From: Candidatus Thorarchaeota archaeon
GTDB lineage: Archaea > Asgardarchaeota > Thorarchaeia > Thorarchaeales > Thorarchaeaceae
Assembly (NCBI GenBank): GCA_048884965.1
Contig: JBHLQH010000048.1
Span: 1-18,561, forward strand
Reading direction: 5' to 3'
Length of the DNA: 18,561 nucleotides
Shown: piece after piece, positions 8,993-9,095 of the stretch
How the letters are laid out: every line of letters begins with the position of its first letter
How positions within the stretch are numbered: position 1 is the first letter of the stretch
Made by a program: the position numbers and the translations under genes
The notes under the pieces: generated by a model
Database searches by the model: none
The model's input: only the letters and a program-made list of their open reading frames with translations
What the model was told of the DNA's origin: nothing

Positions 8993-9095
8993 TGTGGTCA
9001 GTAGCTAATGAGGCCTAGTTTTCGTAACATGCCCTCATTACACAAACTCCCCCCCTCCTACCACAAAGCCTTGTTGGCTCTGACCACACCTTCTT
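8993..9095 (+). ncRNA. Candidate ~100-nt structured non-coding RNA (unknown family)
   Basis: 8993-9001 pairs with 9080-9088, and 9003-9014 pairs with 9068-9079 (21 bp, one bulged U). All three non-Watson-Crick positions are G-U on the plus strand. Upstream TATA, downstream pyrimidine/U-rich tract, no plausible ORF. Confidence 0.6.

Follow-up and report, generated by a model that had tools for sequence, protein, structure and literature searches.

The window (the whole stretch of DNA analysed, 18,561 nt) contains a 337-nt gap between two minus-strand genes, and within this gap lies a long inverted repeat whose arms enclose a C-rich core. One flanking gene encodes a polytopic membrane protein, P0001, and diverges from the element; the other encodes a nitroreductase, with the inverted repeat 59 nt downstream of it. 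The features of the locus are as follows, with the basis for each in brackets; A3 and A4 are the family alignments defined below, and the last line gives two copies found in other genomes.

7379–8809, minus strand: divergent 476-amino-acid polytopic membrane protein P0001, with its own TATA at ~8829–8834 (tblastn synteny)
8964–8972, plus strand: TATA-like box GTTTAAGTG (centred ~26 nt upstream of the stem; aligns with the ortholog block)
8993–9014, plus strand: 5′ arm of the closing stem (RNAfold, alignment A4, pair counts)
9017–9048, plus strand: inner hairpin presenting motif 1, GUAA/UUAC plus AGUUU/AAACU (RNAfold)
9027–9038, plus strand: C-rich motif 1, ACAUGCCCUCAU, within the inner hairpin's loop (columns without variation in A3 and in A4)
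9047–9064, plus strand: C-rich motif 2, CUCCCCCCCUCCUACCAC, left unpaired by the MFE fold (no variation in either alignment)
9068–9088, plus strand: 3′ arm of the closing stem (inner 12 nt covary, outer CUGACCAC conserved)
9088–9100, plus strand: ACCU, then a pyrimidine/U-rich tail; likely termination region (ortholog consensus)
L033:1503–1622 (plus strand) and L035:1440–1556 (minus strand): insert-bearing sRNA copies in two other genera (best-conserved copy)

The two arms pair over 21 bp with one bulged U and three G-U pairs. On the plus strand, RNAfold joins 8993–9001 to 9080–9088 (9 bp) and 9003–9014 to 9068–9079 (12 bp), leaving U9002 as the only bulge, which is not conserved. The predicted energy is -36 kcal/mol (z = -5.70), and equally good folding occurred in none of 200 shuffles. 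All of the non-Watson-Crick pairs (G9010-U9072, U9009-G9073, and U9006-G9076) would be A-C on the minus strand. The outer part of the 5′ arm, GUGGUCAG (8994–9001), is conserved, while its inner 12 nt (9003–9014) covary. The inner hairpin corresponds to a UUUCGU/ACGAAA helix in the short-stem paralogs described below, where it is 98% paired with one double change; within the long-stem subfamily it is weaker. The stretch UAAUGAGG (9003–9011) within the 5′ arm of the window copy can instead pair perfectly over 8 bp with CCUCAUUA of motif 1 (9032–9040). By hand count, 8 pairs are kept in one ortholog from the same genus and only AGGGC/GCCCU in others. This alternative pairing may represent a conserved switch or simply follow from the sequence of the arm.

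A TATA-like sequence, GTTTAAGT, occupies 8964–8971, which is 22–29 nt before 8993. When the flanks of 24 orthologs from many genera were aligned at the start of the stem, a conserved cTTAAtagG block appeared at -30 to -22. For a start at the first bases of the stem, this is where an archaeal TATA box would lie. We infer that it is the promoter of an sRNA gene, with a putative transcript start probably at 8992–8994. Downstream of the stem, the window copy continues as ACCUUCUUGUUUG (9088–9100), and the same 24 orthologs give the consensus ACCTctT, in which an invariant ACCU is followed by a T-rich tail; transcription likely terminates in this region. The strand can be read from the stem itself. 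Across the 24 long-stem orthologs, the mean energy of the stem duplex is -33.0 kcal/mol on the plus strand against -24.7 kcal/mol on the minus strand, a difference of ~8 kcal/mol, and the plus strand is the better one in 23 of the 24. G-U pairs make up 73 of 480 pairs. Taken together, the G-U asymmetry and the conserved TATA block fix the plus strand and speak for a transcription unit of its own, the predicted product of which is an RNA of ~100 nt running from ~8993 to ~9095–9100. Much of this had been noticed in the initial annotation, which described a 21-bp stem with one bulge, deviations from complementarity that all read as G-U wobbles on the plus strand but as A-C mismatches on the minus, a TATA box at the right distance, and a U-rich tail. 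Its letters and coordinates for the stem are exact, RNAfold and the shuffle z-score agree with it, the box and the tail recur among the orthologs, and the selection at RNA level that it read from three wobbles is borne out by the preference for the plus strand.

The genome from which the window derives (95.7% complete, 99 contigs) contains five paralogs of the element, each with a different closing stem around a common core. A blastn search with the element found three further loci, matching over the loop and not over the stem, and a motif search found the fifth. Three of the paralogs have a short stem of ~14 bp (contigs C18, C49, and C2), and two have a long stem of ~21 bp: the window copy (C48) and a copy on C1. 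Sequence identity of the C18 copy is 90–99% across all genera of the taxonomic family.

Nineteen short-stem copies were aligned as A3, from which a covariance model, R1, was built with the window copy left out. RNAalifold drew a 13-bp closing stem and a 6-bp inner hairpin from A3, with compensatory changes in 12 of the 19 pairs. By direct counting, 94.4% of cells are paired and 12 pairs have changed on both sides, a result equalled by none of 500 shuffles; sliding the partners by 1–3 columns as a control lowered pairing to 34–50%. R1 recovers all five copies in the genome, the window copy at 8997–9086 with 41.9 bits (E = 2.4e-7). Used as a query, the window copy retrieves full-length orthologs, arms included, at 76–92% identity from many genera of the family, and nearly all of them adopt the same long end-to-end stem. 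A4, the alignment of 24 of these long-stem orthologs, shows conservation of the outer helix GUGGUCAG/CUGRCCAC, and within each subfamily the stem's outer 8 bp keep their sequence as well. Pairing holds in 93.8% of the cells of A4, 7 pairs show double changes, and again none of 500 shuffles does as well. The covariation lies in the inner 8 aligned pairs, 5 of which have double changes. The closing stem therefore covaries in both alignments of collected homologs, the comparison by which the initial annotation had suggested the structure be judged.

Several copies depart from this architecture. The second long-stem paralog (L011, ~4940–5040, minus strand, contig C1) has lost the inner hairpin and stands head-to-head with an OsmC-like gene. 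In a genome of the same genus (G006, L242–L247), a repeat of at least six copies with conserved flanks has the second half of the core alone, as the variant CCCUCAAUUACGAAACUCAACCCUCCUACCACGAUU; the 5′ half is missing, and the repeat is absent from the window's own genome. It may have arisen as an sRNA subfamily, or through capture of part of the gene by a mobile element. Further copies, L077 (G004:C119) and L079/L248 (G020), keep the loop and the 3′ arm next to an unrelated 5′ side, which makes a closing stem impossible, and G020 has several such 5′-altered copies near contig ends. These look like truncated or rearranged copies.

It is the loop, not the stem, that is conserved. Of its ~53 nt, ~50 are invariant across at least 16 genera, including AUGCCCUCA and CUCCCCCCUCCUACCAC, which do not vary in either A3 or A4; the window copy has the family motifs as AUGCCCUCA at 9029–9037 and CCCCCUCCUACCA at 9051–9063. 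The core starts with GUUUUUCG and ends with ACGAAAC. Motif 2 contains CCUCCU, which resembles an anti-Shine-Dalgarno (anti-SD) sequence and is unpaired in the MFE fold. In two relatives (the G013 and G021 copies) the motif 2 tract is interrupted by homologous inserts of 30 nt, one directly before CCCUCC and the other directly after it, with the hexamer intact in both; the window copy has no such insert. These inserts fold as hairpins and may be mini-introns or tolerated expansions; no canonical 3-4-3 bulge-helix-bulge could be drawn at either. A small peptide was also considered, as a 24-codon frame (9029–9103) begins at the AUG of motif 1. The C-run varies from 5 to 8 C among orthologs, so the frame is not kept, and its downstream part covaries as RNA. 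The multicopy family and its conserved loop, presumably the functional part of the RNA, go beyond what the initial annotation had described.

The family is confined to one archaeal lineage. Among 40 relatives searched with blastn, the RNA was present in all 24 genomes of the same taxonomic family, and with the window copy as query it was found in 58 of 60 genomes of that family. R1, run on 150 genomes of the phylum, detected it in 25 of 26 genomes in the family and in the single genome of a sister family of the order (1/1), with no hits in 123 Asgard genomes from 25 other families. An exact-pattern scan of ~185,000 species gave, among the matches listed, contigs almost all labelled Candidatus Thorarchaeota or Promethearchaeota / uncultured archaeon. 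A MAG labelled Hermodarchaeota has a genuine copy, while matches in Corynebacterium, Nocardia, and two otherwise-labelled archaeal MAGs were rejected by the covariance model and are due to chance. Neither the window nor the best-conserved copy has a match in Rfam at gathering or E-value thresholds. Relaxing the limit to E = 10 gave only chance-level matches, elsewhere in the gap: the spacer between the two promoters, at 8886–8946 (plus strand), scores 13–17 bits against snoU83D, snoU30, and sR34 (gathering thresholds 40–55, E = 2.7–9.7), and these C/D-box snoRNA-like matches are probably fortuitous. Our literature search found no paper describing a Thorarchaeota sRNA. The family is thus Thorarchaeota-specific, multicopy, and uncatalogued, being absent from Rfam.

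On this evidence, the element is very probably a real non-coding RNA gene of a Thorarchaeota C-rich-loop family. The initial annotation had proposed a novel standalone, structured plus-strand RNA of ~100 nt with a resemblance to Y RNA. The first part stands, on the structure, the strand, the absence from Rfam, the covariation, and the promoter-like block; the resemblance to Y RNA does not. The initial annotation was also right not to recognise a tRNA, 5S, SRP, or RNase P RNA: Rfam returned no match for the element and ARAGORN no tRNA. ARAGORN likewise found no tmRNA, and the likeness of a stem followed by ACC to an acceptor end is not universal in the family. A guide for rRNA was sought in the form of a run complementary to 16S or 23S rRNA, and none is conserved between two relatives; the best runs are of 8–10 nt and genome-specific.

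We propose, with a probability of roughly 45%, that the RNA works in trans as an sRNA, masking ribosome-binding sites (RBSs) by anti-SD base pairing. In this mechanism, the 21-bp closing stem, free to vary in sequence as long as it stays paired, would hold the ~53-nt loop open. Two largely unpaired C-rich motifs would thereby be displayed, AUGCCCUCA on the small inner hairpin and CUCCCCCCUCCUACCAC beyond it. Their CCUCC/CCCUC tracts would pair in trans with the G-rich SD regions of mRNAs, and translation initiation would be blocked. The proposal draws on the relationship between the motifs and the SD sequence, on the organisation of the family as sibling genes, and on the precedent of archaeal anti-RBS sRNAs.

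The 16S rRNA gene is missing from the MAG that contains the window, and 16S 3′ ends were therefore taken from relatives. Their 3′ end, GGAUCACCUCCU, carries CCUCCU, as motif 2 does, and in two genera motif 2 and the 16S 3′ end with its trailer have the longer CCUCCUAC in common. The 16S tail of the relatives reads CACCUCCU. Within the genome, 15% of TAGGAGG and 12.5% of AGGAGGG occurrences lie 3–11 nt upstream of the start codons of long frames, compared with a background of ~5% and with 13% for the canonical GGAGGTG. These 7-mer complements of motif 2 are therefore enriched 2–3 times over background at SD distance, a weak result since any sequence bearing CCUCC would show it. Perfect-complement sites of at least 10 nt are at or below chance in the genome, and this complement search found no specific mRNA target. 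The best candidate, UGGUAGGAGG-N7-AUG of a histidine kinase, was set aside as lying inside a 754-amino-acid reading frame. Two 16S loci of relatives are unusual in their own right. In one (L103:1420–1520, minus strand), an insertion of ~90 nt with three similar hairpins (CACAUUUCGUG loops) precedes the last helix; in the other (L104), the locus spans 2.4 kb, which suggests that it holds introns.

The main alternative to an sRNA that pairs with mRNAs, though a less likely one, is a protein-binding RNA, acting as an RNP scaffold or decoy, the loop of which is read by a conserved protein or by the small-subunit machinery with no mRNA-specific seed. One variant would be a mimic of the 16S 3′ end that titrates a factor reading CACCUCCU; another would be a global sponge of SD-bearing mRNAs. 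Invariance over ~50 nt in all genera exceeds what a short seed needs and suits an RNP or protein partner no less well; the stem's outer 8 bp, conserved in sequence within each subfamily, point in the same direction. So do the sharing of CCUCCUAC with the 16S 3′ end and trailer in two genera, the conserved CACCU after the stem, and the lack of a specific target in the genome's own mRNAs. Against a scaffold or decoy, no candidate has emerged for the partner protein, the likeness to 16S beyond CCUCCU extends over only 2–3 nt and could be chance, and the presence of several sibling genes is more usual for regulatory sRNAs than for housekeeping RNPs.

A more specific proposal, which we regard as improbable, is that the RNA imitates the 16S 3′ end in this lineage specifically, with CCUCCUAC(C)ACG displayed in its helix-closed loop as at the junction of 16S 3′ end and trailer, and with CACCU(Y)n as its 3′ tail. 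Such an RNA and the small subunit would be rivals for mRNAs with an SD sequence, or for a 3′-end maturation or initiation factor of the Nob1/Dim2 type. If this were true, translation initiation in the archaeal lineage nearest eukaryotes would be under a global brake that can be titrated.

The conserved neighbour offers a further alternative. The P0001 gene stands head-to-head with the sRNA, ~180 nt apart, and tblastn found the same pairing in at least 14 relatives from several genera. The RNA could thus be a cis-linked partner of this divergent gene, either a promoter-associated transcript or a local regulator. We consider this quite improbable, because the two TATA boxes are separate (~130 nt apart), the membrane-protein leader has only generic GGAGG complementarity as read from its sequence, and paralogs that carry this loop have unrelated neighbours, namely HD/radical SAM, rpoE/aIF2-gamma, OsmC, and a PLP enzyme. 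The aIF2-gamma and RpoE genes flank the C49 copy and identify the host as an archaeon. No transposase, RT, cas, or other mobile-element gene was found among the ten neighbours scanned, all of which are unrelated housekeeping genes. P0001 itself belongs to no Pfam or NCBIfam family, and a search of the Atlas returned only Asgard hypothetical proteins. Some 10 membrane helices are predicted in it, and its C-terminal tail is acidic and disordered. The TATA-like box at ~8829–8834, together with an internal GGGAGGU-N5-UUG, suggests that its true start may lie at a TTG near 8785, in place of the ATG at 8809.

That the element acts at the level of DNA or on the minus strand is very unlikely. Such a feature could be a MITE or other inverted repeat, a minus-strand terminator serving the nitroreductase gene, or what is left of a CRISPR repeat (GUUUUUCG...ACGAAAC). 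The long inverted repeat does lie downstream of a minus-strand gene, GUUUU...GAAAC at the ends of the core is like many CRISPR repeats, and a few relatives have truncated or multiplied copies. For a MITE, however, the arms would not be expected to differ and covary as they do among the five copies, and synteny is conserved across genera. The initial annotation had named many dispersed copies with target-site duplications as the mark of such an element; what we found is five copies only and no duplication, the flanks being AAGCA and CCTTC. A nitroreductase terminator would be on the wrong strand according to the G-U test, and that gene is not conserved beside the orthologs. The genome has no CRISPR array, Cas1, or Cas6 from which a repeat-derived RNA could come.

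Least credible is the Y RNA-like partner of a Ro60 protein suggested by the initial annotation: the end-paired stem, pyrimidine-rich internal loop, U-rich tail, and several paralogs do recall Y RNAs and YrlA, but this likeness is topological only, for a TROVE/Ro60 search that was positive in Deinococcus as a control had no hits in the 95.7% complete genome, the bulged-C helix is missing, no Y_RNA or YrlA match appeared at E up to 10, and a conserved loop with a variable stem is the reverse of Y RNA conservation.

Among the other known RNAs, the 16S 3′ end shares CCUCCU with motif 2, or CCUCCUAC when the first bases of the Thorarchaeota 16S trailer are included. The flanks differ, with a C-run here where 16S has GAUCA, and the likeness may reflect only the complement that the two have in common, the SD sequence. 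In Firmicutes, RsaE/RoxS (Rfam RF01820) and LhrC1-5 pair with SD regions through unpaired C-rich motifs, and are encoded by sibling genes with identical seeds. The Thorarchaeota family resembles them, by analogy only, in having several unpaired C-rich motifs and multiple sibling genes. Those RNAs are bacterial, with Rho-independent terminators and without an end-to-end closing stem. The family described here has no Rfam match.

Asgard archaea are the closest prokaryotic relatives of eukaryotes. Few have been cultured, and to our knowledge almost nothing is known about their regulatory RNAs. The closest archaeal parallel is provided by the anti-RBS sRNAs of Methanosarcina mazei, sRNA154 (loop 2) and sRNA41, in which an exposed loop is proposed to mask ribosome-binding sites (PMC5867862). 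Like these, the RNA described here is archaeal and intergenic, and it is predicted to be independently transcribed and to expose a loop complementary to RBSs. The two have no homology in sequence or structure, and the present family differs in being Asgard-specific, in having five siblings, and in combining a much longer, invariant loop with a long covarying end-to-end stem. The alignments and covariance model are enough to support an Rfam entry and to probe metatranscriptomes or enrichment cultures. Near-universal in the Thorarchaeota searched, multicopy, and built around an anti-SD-like core, the family is a testable candidate for the control of translation initiation.
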